From the NCBI GenBank assembly GCA_031216635.1, contig CM062276.1:7299185-7363184 (forward strand): a stretch of 64,000 bases of DNA, written 5' to 3'. This stretch comes from Dissostichus eleginoides (taxonomy: Eukaryota). The translations under genes were made by a program, and so were the position numbers. Of the stretch, positions 8,477-55,100 are shown one piece after another; within the stretch, counting starts at the first letter, position 1; each line of letters starts with the position of its first letter. The notes under the pieces are model-generated. The model was not told where the DNA came from. It made no database searches and was given only the letters and a program-made list of their open reading frames with translations.

Positions 8477-11400
8477 TCCCTGTTTGCATCATGTCTTTTT
8501 GTGTTCCTGTCAAGGTCTCACATAGTTCTGGAAAGTCATTGCACATTATGCCTCAAGATATTCGTGTAAAAAAACTCTGATTTGTTGATGTGGAGAATAG
8601 AATAGAAAACAGGAGAAAAATGCCCCTTTTGCTAAATTATAATAACAACTTTGACAGAGTGTTTGGAGACAGGAGGAAAATTCAGGAAAAATCACAGAAT
8701 TTTTAAGATTAAAGTTATTACAAATACAACTTGATGTTCTCTGAGATTTGAGTGCTCGATTTACAATAAAACGTTTAAATACAAGAAAAATACTTAAATA
8801 AATTGTGAAATGATTTTGTCATAGTCGTTGGAGAAAACGTGATAACAAAATAACGAGAAAAAATGGGTGTTGTTTTAAAAAACAAATGTATGAGGCATCA
8901 AGAGTGTACCAATTATACTTAGAAAAGACAGAAAGGCAGCAGCACAATACACAAACACAAGAAGGTCATTGTAAAGCATGAAAGTATAATATTCAACTTA
9001 TTTTTAAGTGGTCTTATGCTATATATCTTCAGCGTTTAAAGAAGTTGCACAGTTAATGACAGTCTGACATTTTCCTTCAGTTTAAATCTTAGTTTAAATG
9101 TATGAAATGTTATATTTTGCATCTGGGTAATGTTGCGTGACACACAAGAGGAAACATTGACGCGCGATTACATAACACATCTTTGTAATATCAGGTAATA
9201 AAACACCGGTTTATTACTTCTCTATGGAAACAAAGCAGCCGTATAGTGTTTCTCAAACAAATGTAGGCAAATATTATGTTATTATGTGTCCTATTTCAGG
9301 GGCTGGATCCTCTAAACCAGTGGTTCTCAACTGGTCAGGCCTCGGGACCCACTTTTTCCTTTGTCAATAAATCGCGACCCAAAATTTGAACCACTCAAAT
9401 CTATTCAACAACAAAATCGTGCAGTAATATATATACGCTTTTCAGCAGACAATGTTAATTAAAGTGAAGTACAGTGCATATATCCCTTATACCCCTTCAC
9501 AGAACTAAAGTATGCTTTAAAAAAAGGTTTAATGAGAAGATGGAATCAAAGCTGAACTGTATAACATAAAAAGGCACACGTGCTGAAAACCCAACCCCAG
9601 AAGGGGGGTCTGGGGGGATTCTCCCCCAGGAGATTTTTAAAAATACTAACATATAAACTACGCATTCTGGTACACTCTGAGAAGAAAATAAATAAATCTA
9701 TTACTACCCGACATATTAATAATATTTGATGCCATTGTTTTTCACTTTGTTCTGACAGCTGAACTTGCTGCTCCTCACAGAGAGAAGAGTAAAGAGGAGA
9801 GAGTGTGAATTACTTTAAATTGTGGGTAGGGTAGATACCCCCCATTGTTCTGTGACCTGTCAATCATCAAACCGGGGGTCATATTTCATTACGTGTTCAT
9901 TTCTATCTGAAGTTCATGGATGTATAAAGAATAGTTCTACCGCAAAGTTATTCTCCGTGGGGACTTCCGGCAACAATCTTGATTCTGATTGGCCAGAAGA
10001 CTCGAAAAAACATCAGCAAAGATGTTTGATTGAGAAGATGATCACTACGTGACAGAAGTTTTCAAAACCGTTTATGGTCTCCGGTACTTCCAGTCCGACG
10101 CCGACTGCATGCACAGCGTTAGAAAATCGGGCCTTCAAAATAAAAGTTTGACTTTTTTCCAAGTCAAGTTTTTTCTTCACTCACACATCTGCGACCAGAG
10201 TTGGGTGTAATATTACTTTTGTCGGTAACGGAGTAGTGTAACGCGTTACTAACATTGCCCCGACACGCGTTACTTCGTTACTTTTATAAAATCAGTCATA
10301 ATCACACTGACAGACAAGAGGGGTTTCCGCCGCAGGTTTATATGTACGTAATCTGCGCGACTCGCGCGTCCACATCTCCACGTGCAGTGCTGCATAAACA
10401 TGGCTGAGTCAGCGATAACTTTCGAGGGGTGGAGGTATGCCCATTATTTTGAGTTCGTCCGAAGAATAGACAGGAATGTGACGGTGAGGTGCAAACTGTG
10501 TCCAGGCCAGAAGCTTTTATCCACTGCTGTAAACACCACGTCAAACCTCAGCAAACACCTGCAAAGAACACATGCTAAGGTGAAGCTAATATCTAAGGAC
10601 CCCGAACCCAGAGTGAGGATGTTGTTTTATACAGGCTATTTATTTGTAAAGTATTTGTTTATTTTGCCAGTGTCACATCACATTGATATGGCCCACTTGT
10701 TCCTTTATTACAATTTTTCTCTTGAAATGCTCTTTACGTTTCACAGACTGTTAGCTTGTTGTGGTAGGCTGGTAGCCTATTTTATTAAAGAGCATAAGAA
10801 AGACTTGTGTTATGTCTTCCTTATTGCAATAGTAATTGGGGTGCAAGTGGAGTCTCGCAGAGGCAAAACTGTGGCGCGCTTACACTGTAGGTGCGCCGCA
10901 GTCTGCGTGATCTGCCTGTAGGGATGGGCGGGCCGGACCTGCGAGTAAAGTAACGAGTAAAGTAACGAGTTACTTTATGTAGAGAGTAACAAAGTAGTGT
11001 AATATATTACTTTTTTTTAAAGTAATATGTAATATGTAATATATTACTTTTTTTTAGTAACGACCCCATCTCTGTCTGCGACCCACTCGAAACGGGTCCG
11101 CGACCCACTTTTGGGTCGCGACCCACCAGTTGAGAACCACTGCTCTAAATCCCACGTCTTTAGACACAACAAACATGAAACAGACAGAGAGAGACACTGA
11201 ATCCTCTTTGGCACAAAGCCTGCCGGAGACACAATGATGTTTTCTCTACGCTCTTCAGTATTTTACAATGGAAACAATGTCCTTATCAACTGAATAAATA
11301 TTTGATCATGTCAATACATATCACATGATGCTACTTCACATGAGATGGTATTCATGTAGTCATGAGATCCTGGTGACTTGTGTCAAGATAGTCAGTTTGC

Positions 11401-12927: not shown

Positions 12928-13288
12928 CATCTGCGGCTACTCTCAGCTGGCCTCATTCTTTCCTCCTCCTTCATCTATTTTGTAGTTAGATTACATTTTA
13001 TTTAGCTGACGTTTTGTGTAGAAAGTGATTTACTATTTCAGCAATCAACCATGAGGATACAAACTCAGGACGGCAAGAATACTGCAACTACATTACCTTT
13101 AAAGACCCAGTGAAGTGTGCGCCGGTGCATGATCTGTTATGCTAATACGTATAGTAATGACCAAAATTGTCCATTGGAACCCATATCAAAGATGTTGGAA
13201 TAGCAACGAATTTGACGAGTTTTGAATTTTCCGCTGGGAAATCCGCAGTCGACCTCCGCCTTCGTGGGCGTGGCTTGTGATCTACTGC

Positions 13289-14455
13289 GTGACGTCACAA
13301 GATGGGCCCAGCCGAAGTGTTTACATTCACCACCGTTCATTTTGTCTCTGTTTCAAAGTGGAATTTACCAACGTTTTTGAGCGAGTATTTTATTGGAAAG
13401 TGTTTCGCAGTCGACTGGAAGTGATTGCCAATCGAGGAAACCTGACAATGGAGGCGACAGTGAAGAAAAAGGGAGGAAAAACACACGGGAAGCGATGCAT
13501 TGCCGCTGGCTGTGGTAATGTCAAGTCTGCCGAAGTGGCGATGTTTCTGTTCCCAAAAGATGAAGGTGAGTGGCTGGTGTCATTGTTTCGTAGATTCGTA
13601 GATTGTTTATGAAAAATAAAGGCCACTGTGTTTGTGTTTACTAACAAGACTATCATGGCGGCGGCAGAGCTCAAGTCGAGTTTCTCCGCCTGGAGATATT
13701 CTCACTATTTCACTTTTGTCGAGCACAAAGAAAAGAACGTTTTAGTTAAATGTAAGTTGTGTCTTGGCGGGTCAAAGATCCTATCGACTGCCCAAAACAG
13801 CAATTAAAATCTGTTGAAACATCTGCAGAAACAACATGCTGGGACGAAGCTAGTAGCTAAGACCACAGACCCAGACTCATCCGACGCCACTCCACCTCCA
13901 CCTAAGCAACAGCGGCTGGATTGGCACTTTGAAACATATCTTTGTGTTTGTGTTTGTATAGACCACATTGCTTAGCAGAGTTCAGTGATGCAAATGCATG
14001 TCAAGTTGATCAACAGGTTGTATTATTCTCCGATGCAATAACAGTACTGAAATGAAGGCTACAGTATAAGGGCATTAATGGGTGCCCTTTTTTAAGTAAC
14101 TAAAAAGTTACTTTTCACAGTAACGCATTACTTTTTGGTGTAAGTAGTGAAGTAACTAGTAATTGTAACTAGTTACTGGTTTTCAGTAACTAGCACAACA
14201 CTGCATGTGAACATGAATGTTGCATCATGCTATGAACAGATGAATGTATGATCAGGTGATGGCCAATCCTGTGTGTAGATCTACTCTAGATCTATGACAA
14301 AATATTGTCCTCAACTAAATTGACTTCCATGGCCACTTTCCTCATCTATCCTGTCCGAAAAGCTGTCAAAATCACTCATTTCTCTCGCACCAGTATCACT
14401 TTCCGAAGTCTCCGCCATGTTTACAATCACAACTGGGCCCATCTTGTGACGTCAC
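13289..14455. mobile_element. Second hAT-related non-autonomous element bounded by a perfect 23-bp inverted repeat, with a decayed BED-finger ORF
   Basis: GTGACGTCACAAGATGGGCCCAG at 13289-13311 and its exact reverse complement at 14433-14455. Internal ORF MAAAELKSSFSAWRYSHYFTFVEHKEKNVLVKCKLCLGGSKILSTAQNSN* (13655-13805) is BED-like, then frameshifted. gtaacgcattac/gtaactagttac subterminal repeats at 14100-14190. Confidence 0.55.
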
Positions 14456-21044: not shown

Positions 21045-24000
21045 CTGTCCTGCTTTGTTATTCAAAACATTCTTTCTCTGTGTCTGATTACTGTAAACCA
21101 AAAGTGTTCCTCATTCTGTGAGATGACTAGTAAGTAAGATATGAACTGCGCTAATGGAAGATATTCCAGAGACTGCCTATCCCTTCTTTTCATTTGAAAT
21201 GTTACACAATCTGGTCGAGAGTCACAACATCATCTGAATATCTGATCTGCTTTTTGAATGTTTGTTTAGCGAAATACTTTTTGATTTTAGTCTTTAAATA
21301 AAGTTTGAAATGTTTTTGTTCCATTCAAATGAGATATTAAACAGCCGTTAGATTGAAACACGTTTGTCCTGTGAACCAATTCACCATTAAAAAGAGCTCT
21401 ATAAAACACACACTGTTATTAACACAAAGTATTCATGCATATTTTTATTCATTTGTGTTTCATTAAACCCAAAGTCTGTCGTTTTGTGTGCACTATACTC
21501 AAAAATAACCTTGCTTTGAAATGAGAAACTTTCTTTAGATAAGACTCATACGATAAGAGATGTAAAGATATAATAATAAATAATAATAATAATAGATTTA
21601 TTTTGTTAGCGCTTCTACAGGCGCTTTACAGAGATAGTGAAAAGAAAAGAACAGCAAATAAATATAGTTAAAGTCAAGTTAAAATCAAGCAATACAAAAA
21701 CAATCACACATTAAAAGCCAGATTGAAGAGGTGAGTTTAAGTACGTCTTTTGAAGGTGGTGAGGTCAGGGCAGCCTCTGATGGGTTGTGGGAGTGAGTTC
21801 CAGAGGGAGGGGGCAGCGACGGAGAAGGCTCTGTCCCCCCAGGTCCGGTGCTTGATGCGGGTGGGGATGGATAGGAGGTTGGCTTCTGATGAGCGGAGGC
21901 AGCGGGAAGGGGTGTGGTGGTGCAGCAGGTCTGTGAGGTAGGGGGGGGGGGGGGGCTGATTGTTGAGGGCTTTGTGCGTGATGAGCAGGACTTTGAAGTT
22001 GATTCTTTGATGGACGGGGAGCCAGTGGAGGTTCTGGAGGAAGGGAGTGATGTGGTCTCGGGAGCGGGTGTGGGTGAGGAGGCGGGCAGCAGAGTTCTGG
22101 ATATGTTGGAGTTTATTGAGGAGGTTGGATGGTATGCCGTAGAGGATGCTATTGCAGTAGTCAAGTCGTGATGTGATAAATGCACAGGAGGAGAGTGATG
22201 GGCGGAGACGGGCAATGTTTTTGAGGTGGAAAAAGGCAGTCCTGGTGATGTGATTTATGTGGTGATTGAATTTGAGCTGACTGTCGAAGGTTGCGGATGT
22301 GAGGGGGGTGGGGGGATAGAGTGTTGCCGTCAAGGGTGAAGTTTAAATTCTGGATGGTTTTGGTACGGGATGGGGGGCCGATGATGATGATGTCTGATTT
22401 GGCACTGTTCAGTTGGAGATAGTTTGTTTGCATCCATGCTTTTATTTCTGAGAGACAGTTGGTGAGAGTGGAGTGTGTTGTGGGGGTGATGGTCTTGTTG
22501 AGAGATAAGTTGGATGTCATCGGCGTAGCAGTGAAATTGAAGGTTGTGGCAACAAATTATTTTGCCAAGGGGGAGCATGTAAAGGATGAAGAGGAGGGGG
22601 CCAAGCACCGAACCCTGGGGTACGCCTTGGGACAGAGGAGCAGTGGAGGAGGTGCAGTTGTTGATGTATATAAACTGATGTCTGTCGGTGAGGTAGGATT
22701 TCAGCCAGGAGAGTGCAGTGTCGGTGATGTTGAGTGATGATTGGAGGAGGGACGGCAGGATGGTGTGGTTGATGGTGTCGAATGCTGCGGTGAGGTCGAG
22801 GAGGATGAGGATGTTCAGGTTGCCGGAGTCAGAGGAGAGGAGGAGGTCGTTTGTGATTTTGAGAAGAGCTGTTTCGGTGCTGTGTTGTGATCGGAAACCG
22901 GATTGAAATGGCTCAAAGAGGTCATTGGAGCTGAGGTGGGATTTCAGTTGTGAGGCAATGACACGTTCAAGTATTTTTGACAGAAAGGGGAGATTTGAGA
23001 TGGGCCGGAAGTTGGACATGATGTCGGGTGTGAGTCCAGGTCTTTTGAGAATGGGTGTGACAGCAGCCAGTTTGAGAGAGGGGGGAACTGATCCAGATCT
23101 GAGGGAGGAGTTAATGATGGTGGCGATGAGCTGGGAGATGGCAGGGAGGCTCTCTTTAACACATCTGGAGGGCATTGGGTCAAGTGTGCAGGTGGAGTTA
23201 ATTCCAGTCATGAAGTCGGACAGTTGCATGGGGGTCACAGGGGAGAAGTGGGACAGGGGTTGTGAGGTGAAGGGGGGGGAGCCAGGAGGGGAGGTGGGGG
23301 GTGCTGATGAGGGTGTCAGATTGCTGTAAATGTTGGTTATATGGTTGTATCAGCACCTCCTTAGTTAAACACAGCCACACTCAAACACAGTACATGTTGA
23401 TCCTGTTCTTTTGCTACTTTTCTGATCATTGACTTTGAACCTATTTTGCTGTTAAGGAGTCAGGAATTCTTCTTTGAGGAAACGTATTGTAATGAGATTT
23501 ATTAAACATGCCTCTTAATGGTTTCCGTTACAGTAAGAGCAGAATAGGACATTAAATACAACATGCACACCCAGAGTAAACTCATCAAGGTTTTAAGATT
23601 ATTTTACTGAGAGCTAATTATTATTAATCAGCACTAAAAACTATTACAATAGAACAACTAAAAACGTTTTCAGGGAGTGAAAATCCTTTACATTTGTGAT
23701 GTCACTGTACATTTGTAATTCAACATGTATATATTCAACTTCTTTTGTATTGCTATTTTATTGCTATTGAGATGTTGACATTTTTAAATGTTTATTTCTT
23801 GACTTTTAATTTTATTGTACAATGCCATGTCTTTTTATGCTGCTGCAAAACAAACATTTCCCAACTTGGGATCAATAAAGTACTTCTTATCTTATCTTCT
23901 CTTCTCTTAATAAGATAAATGAACGCACTAGTTTTTATTGAGCTATTTGTAGATATTGATTTCGTTTTTGAAAGCCAAAATGGGCCTCATACATTTGAGT

Positions 24001-25328: not shown

Positions 25329-26099
25329 GACTTTTGTCCCAGTCGACCTTAACACTGTACATGCGTTTATCACATTCATGTTGACATTCCCAAATGTACT
25401 TTGAGACAAGCTGCACGTTATGCTGAAGCTAATGTTGGCTTTCCTTTAGGACGTTTACAACATTTCAACGTGCAATGTGATTGTTATTAATTAAATCTGC
25501 TTGGAAATAACTGGTCGAGGTTTTACAAACAAATGACACCATGTTCTCCTGCAATATTAACGGGGAAGTGGAGAGAGAGAAATCCAAGAAATGAAGATCA
25601 GTATTTCCATTTCTTTCCTGTAAAAACTCCTCTAAATCTTACAAACCTGAAGCTTGATAGCTGAGCCAGCACGACTCCATGATTCATTGATGTTTCACTT
25701 TTTGGCAAGAAAACTTGTCTTTGGCGATTTAAAATGTTGACTTTACCAATCTTAACCTTTAAACCACTTGATCCCATGACTGAAACCTTTGTTATACTAT
25801 ATCTAGTCTTCTGGAACATCACTTTTTTCTTTAGATGTCATGATATTTTATGTAAAAACTGCGGTCTCATGTGCCTGAAATATGCAGCCAAACACAGCAT
25901 GAAGAGAAGATCGCTGCATATCAGAAACTATACATTTTTAACAATAATTTCAAGACTTAAGTCTAACAGGAACACATTTAGCATTTTTCCATTAACATAC
26001 TAAACTAATATTTTGGCACAAATGGTTGTATATGATAATGTGCATATTAATATAAAATAAATGCCACAGGTAAACTGGATTGAATCTAGATATTGAGCC

Positions 26100-27130
26100 C
26101 GTCCTCCAGCATCACTTTGGATCGAGGTCTGGACCCTCTGTGCCCTCTCGCTCTCTCACTTCCTCTCCTCTCTCCCTCCTCTCTCCTCGTTCCCTTCCCC
26201 CCCTCCCCCTCCTCCTCACCTCCTGCTCTCTCAAACCTCCTCACTCGTTTCTCCTCCCCCCTCTCATCGTGAGGAGTCTCCTTCCCTCCTCTCCTCTCCT
26301 CCCTGCTGCTCCCTTCCTCCCTCCTCGACGCCCCTTCCTGACTTCTATGCGACTCCTTCCTCAGGTTTCCATGTTCCTCCCTTCTCGTCCCTCTCTCAGA
26401 CTCCCCTCCTTCTCTCCCTTTTGCCGTCCAGCCCTCCAGTCCTTCCCTCCTCTCTCCTCCTCCCTCCTCCTCCAGCTCTCCGACCTCTCGCTCTGTTTCC
26501 TCTCCTTATCGATATCTAAAGTTTCGTGTTTGCTCCCTCTCTCGCTCCTGTGGGGTCGATCTTTGTCGCTCCTCCCACTCTCCCCCTCTTGCTCTTTATT
26601 CAGCGATCTCCCTTCATGCTTCGTCTCTCTTTCCTCCTCTCTGCTGCTCCTTTTACTTTCTCTCTCCGGTTTTACCCTCTCAGAGTATTTGGAATCACCT
26701 GATCTGCTCTTTATCTCCTCCTGTTCTTTCCCAGCTTTATTTTTCTCCTTCTCCTCCGTCTTTTTATTTGCACTTTTGTCCTCTTTGGTCTGATCTCGCT
26801 TGCTCTCGTGCTTTTCTTTACCGGCTGTGATTCGGTTCTCCGCTTCTTTGTCTTTCTTCTTTCCTTTCTGTGATTGTTCTTTCAAAACCTCCTCTTTAGT
26901 TGCTTTGACACTCTCCAGTTCTGCTCTTTTGCCTCAGCAGAAATCTTCTCCATCTTGCTTTCTCCGTCACCTTTTCCCTTCTTACTCTCCTTCTCCGTCA
27001 TAGCATCCCTTTTTCTCATTTCCTCCTCTATTTCCTCTTTGTTCTTAATTCCCTCTCCTTTTTCGCTCACGCTCTTCTCCTCCTTTTTCTCCTTGTTCAC
27101 ACTTTCCTTCTCCACCTCTTTAATCTTCTT
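26100..27130. repeat. CT-rich (plus strand) / GA-rich low-complexity tract
   Basis: ~1 kb of cctc/ctct/tcct runs; its minus-strand reading gives the E/K-rich tail of APOL-like gene 1 and extends into its 3' flank. Confidence 0.85.
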
Positions 27131-27673
27131 CTGCTCCTCCACCTTCTTGTCCAGTTTCTCCTCCATGAGGTCCAGCTCCTGCTCCAGCTCCGCCAGCTTC
27201 TTGGGATCAGACTCAAAATCGTCGTCCACCTCTTCCTCCACCTCCACGATCTCCTCGAACTCCTCCACCTCGATGCCGTCCATGGTTTTCTGCAGCTGCG
27301 TCTTCACCTTGTTCAGATCCAGGAGGCCATCTTGTAGTTCTTTGCACACGTCCCTGATTTTGGTGGCAAATTTAGTTTTGGCGCCCTTGCGGAGCTCGTG
27401 AGAGTCTTTGGCGAGGAAGAAGACGTCCAGAGCGAGGAAGAGACCCGACATGACGCCCGTGGTGACGCTGATGGCCTGCGCAGCTTTAGCGGCTCCGCCT
27501 GCCACTCCCAGAACCTGCACGGTGCTGATCAGCTTGTCCGTGTTGATCATCAGAGCCTTCCCTGCGCGGCCGCCCTCCTTCATCACGTGCTTCAGGTTGT
27601 GGTTCATCGCCTTCTTCGCAGCGCTCTGTGAGTATTTCTCAAAGTCCCACTCCTGCAGGGTGGCCATACCGGC
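26882..27673 (-). CDS. APOL-like gene 1, terminal exon (C-terminal half of the ApoL domain plus E/K-rich tail, stop at 26882)
   Basis: Phase-0 join to the upstream exon; the tail is encoded by the antisense of the CT-rich tract. Confidence 0.65.
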   Translation of the reverse strand, partial: AGMATLQEWDFEKYSQSAAKKAMNHNLKHVMKEGGRAGKALMINTDKLISTVQVLGVAGGAAKAAQAISVTTGVMSGLFLALDVFFLAKDSHELRKGAKTKFATKIRDVCKELQDGLLDLNKVKTQLQKTMDGIEVEEFEEIVEVEEEVDDDFESDPKKLAELEQELDLMEEKLDKKVEEQKKIKEVEKESVNKEKKEEKSVSEKGEGIKNKEEIEEEMRKRDAMTEKESKKGKGDGESKMEKISAEAKEQNWRVSKQLKRRF

Positions 27674-29020
27674 CTACGAAGGGACACAGACAAGAAAGGA
27701 AAGTGAGAACCGTGTCAGAAAATATATATATTATTCAAAAAATAAATGTCAAGGGACACTACGAAGGTTGAAGTTCTTTCTGTGATTTTTAAGAGCTATT
27801 GCTCACTGGCATCACACCACTTTTTTCTTAGAATTCACCATGAATACATTAAAAAAAAAAAAAACTAGGGTTAAAGTTACTCTCATTTCAAGTATCTGGT
27901 GTTAAAACTACAGGATGATTAAAGTAATTATCCTGAATGAAAGAACCAGATTTTGGCATGAATTTCTGGGGAAAATAGTGCATGTGATCCAGAGAAAAAA
28001 CCACCTTACACCGTACAGTGTGTGTCTCTTCTCTCATATGTAGTGTTGGCAACGGCTAATAATCTTAATTGGTTAATAACCTTTTCAGTATGTTACCAGT
28101 TTTGCTACACAAAGCCACCATCACTCACATTTTAATCTTTAAGTTAATATATTTCCATAACTATTGTAATGTGAAATAAATCTACCGGCTAACTAAACTA
28201 TCTTCATGTGTAGTTCATTAACAAAGCTCAAACACACCTGTTGTATAACGTTCCTTAAACTCTTCTCATGTTAAACTCACAAGTCTTGTATATAAAAAAT
28301 GTTTTAGGCTTTAATAGATAGTTACAAATATTAACCAGTGTTTTTTTTATTTTTTTTTAACATGAAGACATATACATTAAAGAGATATATAGAATATTTT
28401 ATTCCATTCCATTTCTATGTAAATACTGCTATATTTTAAATTATTTTTTACTGTTATTATAGTTTTCTTAAATAGTTATTTTATGTATGCACCATGACAT
28501 CAAGTCAGGTCACCTGTTTCGGATTCTGATGACAGTGCTATGACCCTTGCTGCTCTACATTTATGGAAGGACTTGCAAACCACTAAATCTCAAACATGTC
28601 CTCACCTGCACGAACTCCATGCACTCCCTGATGTCCTTTATCTCCTCCTGGTATCCCTGGATCATTTTCTCCAGATTCTTCCGGTCCATGTTGGAGTGAA
28701 CTGTGTCCGTGATGTTGGCTGTTGCCGAGGTGATGCTGCCGGCCGTCGCCACGGCGATCCCCACCGCCGTCACGATAATAGAGGCGCCCATAGTGAAAGG
28801 AGCCAGAATGAGGCCAGTGATCGTTGCGATGCTGCCCGCCACACTGGCCACGCCCCCCCCCACCGCAGCCTGCACTGTCTTCTTGTGGAATTCATCCGCA
28901 GCGTCGGCCAGAGCCATCAGCTCCAGGATTCGATGCTGTAAGGACGCCCCTCGCTTGTTGAAAAGACGCACGAACAGACGGGCGGCCATGTAGACTCGAT
29001 CTGCCGCCTGCTCCATCATC
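26882..29020 (-). CDS. Apolipoprotein L (APOL)-like gene 1: two coding exons split by an 932-bp intron, with a long E/K-rich C-terminal extension; upstream exon(s) not found
   Basis: Exon 28606-29020 (acceptor tctctgtgcag|G, donor GTGCAG|gtgagg) encodes MMEQAADRVYMAARLFVRLFNKRGASLQHRILELMALADAADEFHKKTVQAAVGGGVASVAGSIATITGLILAPFTMGASIIVTAVGIAVATAGSITSATANITDTVHSNMDRKNLEKMIQGYQEEIKDIRECMEFVQ. Exon 26882-27673 (acceptor cttcgtag|GCCGGTATG) encodes AGMATLQEWDFEKYSQSAAKKAMNHNLKHVMKEGGRAGKALMINTDKLISTVQVLGVAGGAAKAAQAISVTTGVMSGLFLALDVFFLAKDSHELRKGAKTKFATKIRDVCKELQDGLLDLNKV... followed by ~130 aa of E/K-rich low complexity to the stop at 26882. Both halves are colinear with the single-exon paralog at 54149-55100. 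Confidence 0.7.
28606..29020 (-). CDS. APOL-like gene 1, exon encoding the N-terminal half of the ApoL domain (hydrophobic membrane-addressing hairpins)
   Basis: 415 nt (1 + 138 codons); starts in phase 2 at the acceptor, so at least one more upstream exon exists. Confidence 0.65.
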
Positions 29021-29103
29021 CTGCACAGAGACATGAGGGGAGGCTTGAAACTAAAGGTATGCTGCACTAGGTGAAGGTACATTTAGAAGCTTGTATGTCT
29101 AAG

Positions 29104-30226: not shown

Positions 30227-48415
<18,189 letters not shown>

Positions 48416-52063: not shown

Positions 52064-53776
52064 TCTAATAACTGTGTTTGTTCAAGGTCGCTAAACAATT
52101 CTTAATATTGCCACAAATGTAAAGGTGACAGAAATTCAGAGACAGTTTCAGCTAGCAGACCTCCTTCAACATAATTTATGGAAATGAAAAAGTAAACATT
52201 GCTCCAGGACACTTAGACAAACACATTAATCTTGGTTTTAACTGAGCAAATAAGAAATGCAGTAAGTGCACAGCAGAAGAGGAAAAACGAACCGTTTGCT
52301 TGCTGACACACAGACTAACAAAGAAACAGATTGACCAAAAACATATTTATCTGACCTTTATTTGTCAATTTAAAAGTATTACACAGATTCTACAATATAT
52401 TGCACATGTACAGGTATCGAATGAACTCCACCCAGAAAAAAATATTAAGTTCATCAATCAGCAGAGCTTACAGTATGAACCACATAGTGGAGCGTGACTT
52501 TGAAATAATTAAAAAAGATTAATGTAATAAAAGGAAATGGCAAACAGTTATTTTCAGAAGAGGTTGACACAGTCCTGTCATTCCAGTTGTAAGAGATCAT
52601 TTTCCAAACCATTAAAACATTAATATGGCTGAAGACAACGGTTAAACCTGCAGGACTGTTAAAAGAACAAAGAACACCATCATAGAAGTTCTCCTCAGAT
52701 TTTACGTCTGTATCTTCCCATTATTTTGCACCAGTGGTCAAGTGGGTACTAAGTTAAGATTTACACTTCAATCAAATAAAACAGGTGGCTCCACAACAAC
52801 TGATTCGCATGAACAGATTAGTCACTGTTAAAATATTTACACCCAGTCACTGACAGGTATAAATGAGGCATAGCTAACAGAACAAAAGCTAACTTTAGCT
52901 TGCTTTCATTGTGACTAGTTTAGACTCAGGAGATTTGGCAATAATATAAAAAATGGGTGACATACATAAAATCTAACTCTAAAAATTACGTTTAATAATG
53001 GCGTTTAGTGAGTAAAAACCATTCATTACAAAAAAGAGCCGAAGTACTAAAGGACCACGTGGCGTTAGCTAGGTTAGCATAATCCGATATTTCCCATTCA
53101 TCCTAGACTGGATAAATATGAATAATTCTAAAACACATAATTCTCCATTTATGCCCTGCTTGAATATAAAATTAAAACATATTAATTGCATTTAAGAAAA
53201 GTATTGGCAGCTAAGTTTGATTGACATGTGACTTCCTAAAAACTTATTTGTTTAAGGTTTGCTACAGCTAGGTTAATGAGGTTTATTTGTTGTTTTTATT
53301 AGCTCTTGTGAAAAAAAACATCTGATGCAAAGCTTATTGCCCCATTCTTTAAAATGAGACAAAAGTCATCAATACGTTAAAACATCCCACATTAAATCCA
53401 GAACTTCAAGCAGAGGATGAGGGGTTTCGTTGCAGCCCTGACACCAAAACAAACAACATAGACATAGAAAAGATAGACTATTACTACATTGCATTACAGT
53501 GTACGTATTTCTAAGGCAATTTAAAAATAATTAAGGCACCCGTAAGAGTATAAGCAAAGTCTACACCTGATCAGTGAGCGTTTCTAAAAGAATCAACACA
53601 CTTTAATGGAACTAACAATCACTTTAAAGGCAAACTTATAAAGTCTCTAAAAAATACTTTGTACCTATTTCTTTAAAAATCTAAAACTGTACTATCCAAA
53701 TTCATGATTTAGTTTGGTCTTTGAATCCCATTTTCTTGGCAGTTTGGCACAACAGCCAGAGAAGCAGATACTTTAA

Positions 53777-54052
53777 CTACCGCAGAGCTCACTCACTCAC
53801 TCACTCACTCACTCACTCACTCACTCACTCACTCACTCACTCACTCACTCACTCACTCACTCACTCACTCACACTCACTCACTCACTCACTCACTCACTC
53901 ACTCACTCACTCACTCCACTCACTCACTCACTCACTCACTCACTCACTCACTCACTCACTCACTCACTCACTCACTCACTCACTCACTCACTCACTCACT
54001 CACTCACTCACTCACTCACTCACTCACTCACTCACTCACTCACTCACTCACT
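53777..54052. repeat. (CTCA)n tetranucleotide microsatellite, ~65 units with rare interruptions
   Basis: actcactcactc... for ~275 bp, ending ~100 bp 3' of the APOL-like gene 2 stop codon (minus strand), i.e. in its probable 3' UTR or flank. Confidence 0.95.
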
Positions 54053-54148
54053 TCAAAGTACTTGTAATGTTCTGTAGGGGAACTTGGAAACTGAGAATGT
54101 TTGAAGCTTCCATCTGAACCCCTAATGATAGAGCAAAGTTTCAGGCCT

Positions 54149-55100
54149 TCAAACATATTCTCGGTTCTCATAGTCCTTTTTAATGGCTTTTTTGATGCGG
54201 TCGATTTCATCTTCACTTGAACTGTCATGTTTGTCGTCTTTCTTGTCACTGTCCAATGGGGCTGTGTCGTTGCCTTCGTCGTTTGCTGGCCCGGTGCACT
54301 GCAGCTCCTCTCGTATCGTGTTCAGCTCCACCAGGCCGTCGTGCAGCTGCGTCGCCACCTCCCTGATTTTGGCAGCAAACTCGGACTTGGCCCCTTTCTT
54401 CAGTTCTTTGGAGTCTTTGGCCACGAAGTAGATGTCCATGCCTACAAAGAGTCCAGTGAGCACACCAGTGGCCATACTAGCGATCTGGACCGCTCTCGCT
54501 GCGGTGCTTCCTGCCACGTTGGCGATCTGCACCACACGCATGATCTCGTTAGCGCTGATGAGGATGGCCTTCCCTGCCATGGCGCCGTCTTCATAAATAC
54601 TCTTGCTGAGCACAGGGAAGTCTCGGTTGTAGGCGTGTTCTTTCATCTTGATCAGGTCAAACCTCTTCATGTTCTCGATTCCCTGCTTGATGAATTTAAG
54701 GCACTTGTTGAGGTCGACCATCTTCTCCACATAATCATTCACGATCTTCTCCACCTTCTTGCGGTCCTGGGAGTTGTTGACCTGGTTGGAGATGCCGGCG
54801 CCTGCTGATGTCAGACCGCCTGCCGTAGCGACACCCAATCCTACAGCCGTAATAATCAGAGAGACCCCGAAGGTGACCGGGGCCAGAGCGAGGCCGGTGA
54901 TGGTGGCCACGCCCCCGATGGCGCTGGTGGAGCCGCCGGTGATTTGGGCGATCTTTGTGTTCTTGTTGAACTTGTCCAGGCCGTCTGCGATGCTGTTGAG
55001 GTCGATGACGTGCTGCCAGAGGCTCTCAGCCCGCTCCGAGAACAGTTTGTTGAAGACGCGGATTCCCTTCTGCACCTTGTCCGCCGTCACAGCAAACGCC
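54149..55100 (-). CDS. APOL-like gene 2, main (terminal) exon encoding the whole ApoL domain without an intron
   Basis: 313-aa ORF plus acceptor; paralogous to both exons of gene 1 (e.g. RVFNKLFSERAESLWQHVIDL vs RLFVRLFNKRGASLQHRILEL; FVAKDSKELKKGAKSEFAAKIREVATQLHDGLVELN vs FLAKDSHELRKGAKTKFATKIRDVCKELQDGLLDLN). Confidence 0.8.

Follow-up and report, generated by a model that had tools for sequence, protein, structure and literature searches.

A flexible hydrophobic helical hairpin rich in Gly, Pro, Ser, Thr, Ile and Val is a feature of the ApoL family of proteins (PMC11726835). Among its members, APOLD1 (VERGE) is an endothelial immediate-early protein that acts at cell contacts and Weibel-Palade bodies (PMC9973481, PMC10328887); it has been implicated in a bleeding disorder (PMC9973481) and has a role in pathological angiogenesis (PMC10328887), and it is considered unlikely to form pores (PMC11726835). 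The APOL1-6 genes are a mammal-specific expansion, which arose from an APOL6-like ancestor ~70 Ma ago in the mammalian ancestor (PMC8557400). Here we describe an ApoL-domain gene on the minus strand of a 64,000-nucleotide (nt) stretch of Dissostichus eleginoides DNA (GCA_031216635.1, contig CM062276.1, positions 7,299,185 to 7,363,184), hereafter called the window, in whose coordinates all positions are given. An initial annotation, made from the letters alone, had described positions 26882–29020 as an APOL-like gene (gene 1) with a paralog further along the window (paralog 2). We are confident that this element belongs to an ordinary teleost gene, apold1a (also si:rp71-1g18.13), of which it forms the 3′ half with the two final exons. 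A literature search found no paper mentioning apold1a or apold1b; the gene is thus annotated in databases yet unstudied.

Both genes carry ApoL domains, as evidenced by alignment to Pfam ApoL (PF05461), which gives E = 7e-32 for gene 1 and E = 5e-38 for paralog 2. In the spliced 401-amino acid (aa) product of gene 1, the match scores 111.5 bits (cut-off 25.9) and spans aa 12–259, or positions 49–297 of the 298 in the profile. A search of a large protein collection with gene 1 places teleost apold1a/b proteins in all of the best 120 matches, under the names apolipoprotein L domain containing 1a, apold1a, si:rp71-1g18.13 and apold1b, and the best of these are 85–91% identical over the domain. 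No protein from the same species was found in that collection, where the best match is 91% identical. Neighbour-joining analysis of the ApoL domain unites the teleost apold1a/b sequences in a clade (87% bootstrap) and places a Polyodon/Acipenser/gar "L6-like" group as their sister, with 60% support. The split between a and b inside this clade is poorly resolved (8–33% for a, 84% for b). The apol1 genes form a separate clade with its own gar member, and amniote APOLD1 falls outside. Gene 1 is placed with gar and sturgeon genes in a clade of actinopterygians, and not in the APOL6-derived mammalian clade.

The coordinates of the two exons in the initial annotation are correct, but the 5′ exons and the full tail had been left out. 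In the window apold1a is a multi-exon gene on the minus strand, as are all of its features given below, and it runs from ~40.8 kb down to 26,086. The exon at 28606–29020 encodes the first half of the ApoL domain with its Gly/Ala/Ser/Thr-rich hydrophobic hairpin and contains an in-frame run of nine G residues (G9, 28853–28861). It sits behind an AG acceptor at 29022–29021 and ends at 28606 with …GAG TTC GTG CAG/gtgagg. Position 29019 is not the start codon of the gene; the exon at 29020 continues upstream coding exons in phase 2. Translation and inspection of splice sites reveal at least three such further coding exons, and all three align with orthologues. The exon at 30697–30771 (DSTVDVQNVEMAAYPTGENPLETEP), flanked by ..ttttccag/ and /gtgtgt, aligns with the orthologue segment VEMAAYPTE.NPLE; that at 30424–30463 (ESDELTLWWNTVK-G) ends in phase 1 and contains the conserved motif WWxTV[KE]GW; and that at 30231–30282 ((G)WAEWNENSNLQEEDEE-M) joins 29020 in phase 2. 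The last exon as conserved in the orthologues, 26086–27673, encodes the second half of the ApoL domain and the whole polyampholyte tail, with the stop after ..LEDGLNI.

Much of this model can be read against L001, a 3,056-nt Logan contig from run SRR28473478 that encodes a 668-aa orthologue (P0001). L001 aligns to the window in the blocks 30288–30230, 29017–28605, 27675–26766 and 26573–26080, skipping from 30288–30230 directly to 29017. L001 is therefore, as judged from the alignment, a spliced mRNA of a related species, ~87% identical in the 29020–28606 exon. The last exon is colinear with L001 over 27675–26766 and 26573–26080, with no intron inside. In a search of proteins against the window, long-isoform orthologues match window exons out to ~40.8 kb. 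At 32602–40816, the N-terminal parts of the long apold1a isoforms P0004 and P0007 match a series of small exons; an open reading frame (ORF) within this region reads …DKGGIFSGMFKKSPKQ…, similar to the repeated G-x-F-K-[KR]-[ST]-P-K modules of the orthologues, and apold1b has analogous …QKVNPFKS modules.

The two annotated exons are separated by a 932-bp intron (27674–28605, GT..AG), which had been proposed to split the ApoL domain in phase 0, and this proposal holds. The intron lies between codons Q138 and A139 (..EFVQ/AGM..), and since the PF05461 match spans aa 12–259, the junction is inside the domain. The acceptor follows a pyrimidine-rich run, …cccttcgtag/GCC GGT ATG GCC at 27673. Joining 28606 to 27673 keeps the frame, and therefore the intron is of phase 0; the unspliced frame meets a stop 15 codons into the intron. 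The related-species mRNA L001 splices the intron out, joining 28605/27675 exactly, and the orthologous proteins are continuous over the junction 28606/27673. The same CAG/GT..AG/G junction is seen at the identical codon and in phase 0 in four other teleost loci, with the orthologue consensus ..F-[VL]-Q / [EDA]-G-M... In these the intron measures 572 nt (Albula goreensis, L004), 301 nt (Dicentrarchus apold1b, L003) and 963 nt (Aplochiton, L007), while in Garra apold1a (L002) the match is to the acceptor only. In P0018, a 371-aa protein from a Logan contig, the called ORF reads through the orthologous intron, which is ~129 nt there and open in frame (…EFVQ VGYCYF…SVCLQ EGMEAL…).

Paralog 2, in contrast, has its domain in one exon, a single ORF at 54149–55090 that lacks the intron, just as the initial annotation had described it; the homologous site, AAG CAG/GGA, is an uninterrupted proto-splice sequence. 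The intron is also absent from the gar protein P0240, whose last exon encodes aa 127–412, and the emu APOLD1 coding sequence is intronless. The presence of the intron in all teleost apold1 genes inspected, and its absence from gar, amniote APOLD1 and apol1, suggests that it was gained in the teleost stem lineage. Most simply, the apold1 gene of stem teleosts would have acquired it once, ahead of both the a/b split and the divergence of Albula. The initial annotation had explained the difference as intron gain or loss between the paralogs. The difference itself stands, but apold1a and apol1 are old separate genes, each with a gar counterpart, and the difference is therefore old as well. Intron gain is rare in vertebrates, with a higher turnover in teleosts (PMC12357937). 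A search of 25–31 kb against Rfam gave no match to this intron, and no second copy of it is present in the window.

The initial annotation had ended the protein with a Glu/Lys-rich tail of ~130 aa, read antisense to a CT-rich tract. This composition is present in the sequence: the tail (27270–26882, hereafter frame A, with the stop TGA at 26884–26882) comprises 131 aa after QKTMD, 47% of which are Glu or Lys and 57% charged, and the tract at 26089–27270 is 79–81% purine on the coding strand. The end of this ~130-aa tail, however, is set by a 1-nt deletion that none of the long-tailed orthologues shows. The ORF takes up no more than the first third of the tract, and the remainder, 26917–26086, is homologous to the coding distal tail of the orthologues in two other frames. 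The long-tailed orthologues (P0001, P0005, P0010, P0012 and P0017, together with those of Albula and Aplochiton) carry 270–355 residues after QKTMDGI in one open frame, and tails of this kind, ~270–390 aa in all, are encoded by the entire purine-rich tract. Among the long-tailed proteins, those of acanthomorphs have …L-[EH]-[DE]-G-L-N-I as their C-terminus, which in P0012 reads …DALNI. A tblastn search of P0001 against the window returns three collinear high-scoring segment pairs in three frames, with residues 186–418 at 27673–26921 (frame A), residues 421–530 at 26915–26430 (frame C) and residues 540–668 at 26415–26089 (frame B). Frame B ends in …RSKVMLEDGLNI with the stop at 26088–26086, and the purine-rich tract ends just past this conserved stop, at ~26080. 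The conserved full tail in the window thus amounts to ~390 aa, ending at 26086.

The positions of the frame changes are revealed by the nucleotide alignment with L001, which contains in the tail many indels in multiples of three and two single-base gaps in the window. At the first (26909–26926, ~26919; GAGCAGAA^CTGGAGAGTG, in the alignment GAGCAGAA^CTGGAG), the window has one base fewer than the orthologous mRNA (…GAGCAGAAAGATGAGACTG…) and the homology shifts from frame A to frame C. At the second (26417–26435, ~26428; AGGGCTG^GACGGCAAAAGG, in the alignment GGGCTG^GACGG), it has one base fewer than the orthologue (…GCTGAGATGGCAAAA…) and the homology shifts from frame C to frame B. We also considered that a small intron might connect frames A and C, and rejected this, since the switch must lie within 26933–26885, a span of 49 nt, and the mRNA of the related species follows the window colinearly along the tail. 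Judged from the orthologues, then, the frame-A tail stops early only because two single-base deletions break the conserved tail frame.

The distal tail (26086–26917), although out of frame with the upstream coding sequence, is well preserved. The homologous frames contain 0 stops in 162 + 112 (274) codons, as compared with 5 and 10 in the other frames of one segment (S2) and 6 and 3 in those of the other (S3), and dinucleotide shuffles are left open in only 0.35% and 8.4% of cases. The conserved islands VKAxKEEVLKEQ, KDKEAENxxTAGKEK, SWRRRxEEERGxKDWRA, RKESHRSQ, RRFERA, RRGSExxxGH and the terminal LEDGLNI are all kept. A protein repaired at the two sites aligns to its last residue with P0001, P0005, P0010, P0012, P0013 and P0017. 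That the distal similarity might instead be 3′ untranslated sequence is made unlikely by the mRNA contig and by the orthologue ORFs, each of which stays in a single frame. Finally, the identity of the window distal tail to P0005, P0010 and P0012 is 42–44%, as against 44–47% for the intact P0001 tail, with no clear acceleration.

Whether the deletions are real or errors of the assembly consensus is a matter on which the evidence cuts both ways. We give slightly less than an even chance to the first explanation, in which both 1-nt deletions are real in the species or lineage, the protein is a truncated apold1a with a ~130-aa tail, and the distal 830 nt are a relic so young that stops have still to accumulate in it. 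Both shifts lie in the tail with the second downstream of the first, as would be expected after release from selection, and no frameshift is seen in another ~2.3 kb of conserved coding sequence of the window, the in-frame G9 run included. Short tails also occur naturally, with 45–75 aa in cyprinid apold1a and ~25 aa in apold1b. A stop codon in the last exon does not trigger nonsense-mediated decay; decay is therefore not expected here, and a real allele would give a short-tailed protein. Against real deletions stand the absence of stops from the 274 codons of the homologous frames, where other frames contain 3–10, the intact islands and C-terminus, and the distal tail that is no more diverged than the intact one of P0001. 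Since the distal tail is not extra-diverged, any truncation would have to be very recent.

This preservation of all islands and of the stop in the shifted frames is what would be seen under the second explanation, in which the deletions are consensus errors in a low-complexity purine tract and the true reading frame extends over the full tail to LEDGLNI; here, too, we place the probability a little under one half. Each site could have lost one base from a short run, AA(A) at 26920–26919 and GG(G) at 26429–26428. In addition, other models of this tail look frame-damaged or cut (Lampris P0006 and Aplochiton), suggesting that the tract is error-prone for assemblies and annotators. On the other hand, neither site is a long homopolymer, the window contains no Ns, and its long microsatellites and coding G9 run are cleanly resolved. 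If errors were spread evenly, two of them would both land in the 830 nt of the distal tail, and not in the other 2.3 kb of coding sequence, with a probability of ~7%. If the deletions are real, the product would be a short-tailed protein as in cyprinid apold1a; if they are consensus errors, the mapped exons would give a full protein of ~720 aa.

The G9 run at 28853–28861 encodes the conserved AAVGGGVAS in frame, and it serves as an internal control for homopolymer accuracy beside the two tail frameshifts. In Aplochiton taeniatus (L007, 4504–4867), the deposited model jumps to a mini-exon far away before the tail exon is complete; the genomic DNA runs in one frame past the end of this model to RPRSKAFLGDGLYI and a stop, the conserved C-terminus. 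The C-terminal ~50 aa of the Lampris incognitus protein P0006 are uncharged (…SNRLPKASLESMTSLRVHAQATQLH…), unlike every other tail. The end of P0006 looks out of frame, and frame problems in the tract may be common. In Garra rufa apold1a (L002, 9859–10236), proximal-tail-like sequence is present past the stop (…KTMQQQ followed by the stop), with a tblastn match of E = 6e-15 across it. This tail-like sequence after the stop suggests that the cyprinid short tail arose by a premature stop.

The initial annotation had further described the tail as the product of a simple-sequence tract that may evolve by repeat slippage. The tract is biased in composition only. Tandem Repeats Finder returns scores of just 30–61 at periods of 2–23, with no true tandem array, and a repeat search of the tract finds only two-copy families of 73–84% identity. 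With such weak scores and two-copy matches only, a tandem-repeat origin of the tract was rejected. Tail length does vary much between species through in-frame indels, from ~25 aa (apold1b) and 45–75 aa (cyprinids) to 270–355 aa (long-tailed orthologues). By these comparisons, the tail is an indel-prone low-complexity region with conserved islands and not a simple-sequence array. As for slippage, no repeat unit is found in the window to support it, and the one case in its favor is that of Poecilia latipinna P0009, whose tail contains four tandem copies of a ~38-aa unit (PKKSKESxLDIFKxKKEKKEEKSVEKTGEMEE…). P0005 and P0010 have just one copy of this unit, whose counterpart in the window is QKKIKEVEKESVNKEKKEEKS.

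Taken as a whole, the initial annotation would amount to a recently diverged pair of APOL-type immune paralogues, an intron gained or lost in one of them, and a slippage-driven simple-sequence tail of ~130 aa. The ApoL domains of both genes, the many indels by which the tail differs between species, and the one orthologue with an amplified 38-aa unit agree with it. The two genes, however, are 43% identical and fall in separate clades, each with a gar member; the intron is fixed in all teleost apold1 genes inspected; no repeat unit is present in the window; and the tail islands are common to the percomorph window and Aplochiton. The pore-forming role in innate immunity, which had been carried over from the APOL family, is unwarranted, given the mammalian origin of the APOL1-6 expansion (PMC8557400) and the view of APOLD1 as an unlikely pore former (PMC11726835). 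We therefore regard this combined reading as very improbable. The assignment to apold1a can be extended to a wider scenario, which we consider possible but doubtful: the teleost-stem apold1 ancestor, after the divergence of gar and before that of Albula, would have gained both the phase-0 intron at a CAG/G proto-splice site and a motif-bearing polyampholyte tail of ~300–390 aa with an L-x-I end, and the tail would later have been shortened in separate events in apold1b, in the apold1a of cyprinids and, should the deletions be real, very recently here. If true, an ApoL domain until then encoded by a single exon would have acquired an intron, an event rare in vertebrates, and an uncharacterised membrane protein would be available in naturally short-tailed and long-tailed forms.

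The predicted protein has a small N-terminal region with a W-W-x-T-V-K-G-W-x-E-W-N-E motif, followed by the ApoL domain, the first half of which forms an uncharged Gly/Ala/Ser/Thr/Ile/Val-rich helical hairpin around an invariant Pro. The hairpin, aa 53–103 (GGGVASVAGSIATITGLILAPFTMGASIIVTAVGIAVATAGSITSATANI), contains no acidic residue, and its positions G55, G62, P74, G78, G87 and G94 do not vary among 27 sequences. By analogy with APOLD1 and APOL3, this hairpin, with its invariant P74, may insert in the membrane at neutral pH, flanked by amphipathic helices (PMC11726835). In the AlphaFold2 (AF2) model, the tail begins with a helix at aa 295–337, with block-mean predicted local distance difference test (pLDDT) values of ~65–86, and further helices are predicted at aa 350–367 and 376–400; the rest of the tail is mostly of low confidence (block-mean pLDDT ~31–76). 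The tail would project into the cytoplasm as an E/K-rich helix, then as a disordered polyampholyte presenting short linear motifs. Candidate motifs are RRGS(D/E) (RRxS), which we take to match the basophilic-kinase (PKA-type) consensus, and the C-terminal L-x-I (hydrophobic-x-hydrophobic), which we take to be a class-II PDZ-type ending. A Pfam search of the tail gave no family match. A Foldseek search of the AF2 model against the PDB returned nothing at E ≤ 0.001; weak alpha-helical-bundle and alpha-pore-toxin rows (E 0.1–2) were above this threshold and were discarded as evidence. A profile search against PDB sequences likewise gave nothing meaningful.

Several points weigh against this account of the locus as teleost apold1a, or limit what can be drawn from it. 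Both the splicing and the true state of the two deletion sites in Dissostichus eleginoides are read from relatives, the functions of the tail motifs (PKA-type site, PDZ-type C-terminus) from consensus patterns. The AF2 model is all-helical and mediocre (mean pLDDT 59.6), with the hairpin poorly modelled, and the standing of gar P0240 as pro-orthologue has moderate support only (60%). Amniote APOLD1 is also a distant relative. In BLASTP comparisons with five amniote APOLD1 proteins (two from mammals, the human-matching cluster P0242 and Eulemur, and those of emu, alligator and Podarcis), identity to gene 1 is 27–30% (64–74 bits), aligning only aa 19–140, as compared with 34–37% (86–93 bits) to paralog 2, so that gene 1 is not the closest fish relative of amniote APOLD1 by sequence. 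The human APOLD1 query is 100% identical to a database cluster across 89% of its length, which validates it. The name "apold1" is accordingly nomenclature, as far as these alignments go, and not a demonstrated one-to-one orthology, and with similarity this weak any functional transfer from APOLD1 is tentative. The BLASTP alignments of amniote APOLD1 to both fish proteins stop at ~134–140, exactly at the site of the teleost intron; past it, the second half of the domain is too diverged to align. CDKN1B, DDX47 and GPRC5A, which we take to be the neighbourhood of amniote APOLD1, were not recognised in the 64-kb window, although no dedicated synteny test was made.

Paralog 2 (54149–55090, minus strand; 131.6 bits to PF05461) is the teleost apol1 orthologue. 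Its best matches are teleost "apolipoprotein L, 1" (apol1) proteins, with Eleginops at the top (92%). The locus tags of apold1a and apol1 are adjacent in Albula glossodonta (018406/018407), Cyprinus carpio (00020449/50) and Leuciscus waleckii (031228/29), so that the tandem pair must be old. Gar carries one more ApoL-domain ORF, contained in a single exon, ~10 kb upstream of P0240 on the same strand (L005, 3590–4276), and ApoL genes are thus tandemly arranged in gar too. Just 3′ of the apol1 stop in the window is a ~350-bp array with a 12-nt period (53721–54077; THSLTHSL… on the plus strand), which probably lies in the apol1 3′ untranslated region. The rest of the window holds transposon fragments. 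A degraded minus-strand retroelement, unrelated to the ApoL genes, occupies 21685–23329 (RVT_1, E = 2e-30, split over several frames); a strong positive GC-skew peak at 22–23 kb was considered as a second, plus-strand "tail" and rejected, since it reflects this reverse-transcriptase fragment of the long interspersed nuclear element (LINE) type. An ORF at 10382–10921 on the plus strand has a BED zinc finger (E = 4e-05) and is probably a transposase-derived fragment, and the ORFs at 8–565 and 13277–13612 have no Pfam match. Long uninterrupted (CA/TG)n microsatellites occur at 45576–46030 and ~40870–41011. The absence of N from the window suggests a long-read assembly.

Left uncorrected, the model of this locus would record a 401-aa "APOL-like immune" protein that is missing its 5′ exons and ~290 conserved C-terminal codons and that conceals a broken frame. 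The locus is also a useful flag for read-level checking of this assembly in purine-rich coding tracts. The teleost-specific intron and the long tail with its conserved islands are small, testable evolutionary observations, and a fish relative with natural long- and short-tail forms could be of some use, given the endothelial roles of APOLD1 (PMC9973481).

Compared with known systems, the proximal tail (DPKKLAELEQELDLMEEKLDKKVEEQKKIKEVEKE) resembles E/R/K-rich single alpha-helices and polyampholyte disordered tails, in that it is predicted to be helical with moderate confidence and the tail is 55–57% charged, a likeness of composition and prediction only. Mammalian APOL1-6, which function in innate immunity and membrane remodelling and include the pore former APOL1, have the Pfam ApoL domain and hairpin architecture in common with gene 1 (PMC11726835), but are not orthologous to it, because their expansion is mammal-specific (PMC8557400). 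Amniote APOLD1/VERGE has an ApoL domain with an uncharged flexible hydrophobic hairpin and a name shared through nomenclature; it differs in its length of 246–281 aa, in having no charged tail and in its intronless coding sequence (emu). The gar "apolipoprotein L6-like" protein P0240 is closer in having an N-terminal LLDWW..EGW..W motif and an ApoL domain in the 43–51% identity range that it shares with apol1, while both P0240 and teleost apol1 differ from gene 1 in having the domain in a single exon and no long tail. Teleost apold1b is similar in its domain (~75% identity), in the identical intron position (L003) and in its long multi-exon N-terminal region, but its tail is only ~25 aa (…KKLVELEE and a stop), with no purine-rich relic downstream. 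In cyprinid apold1a the tail is naturally short, at 45–75 aa. The closest system is teleost apold1a itself, named si:rp71-1g18.13 in zebrafish and "apolipoprotein L domain containing 1a" in Ensembl/NCBI. Gene 1 matches members of this group in domain identity (85–91%), the N-terminal WWxTVKGWxEWNE exons, the phase-0 intron, the tandem neighbour apol1, the tail islands and the C-terminal ..DGLNI, and differs from them in the distal tail that two 1-nt deletions place out of frame.

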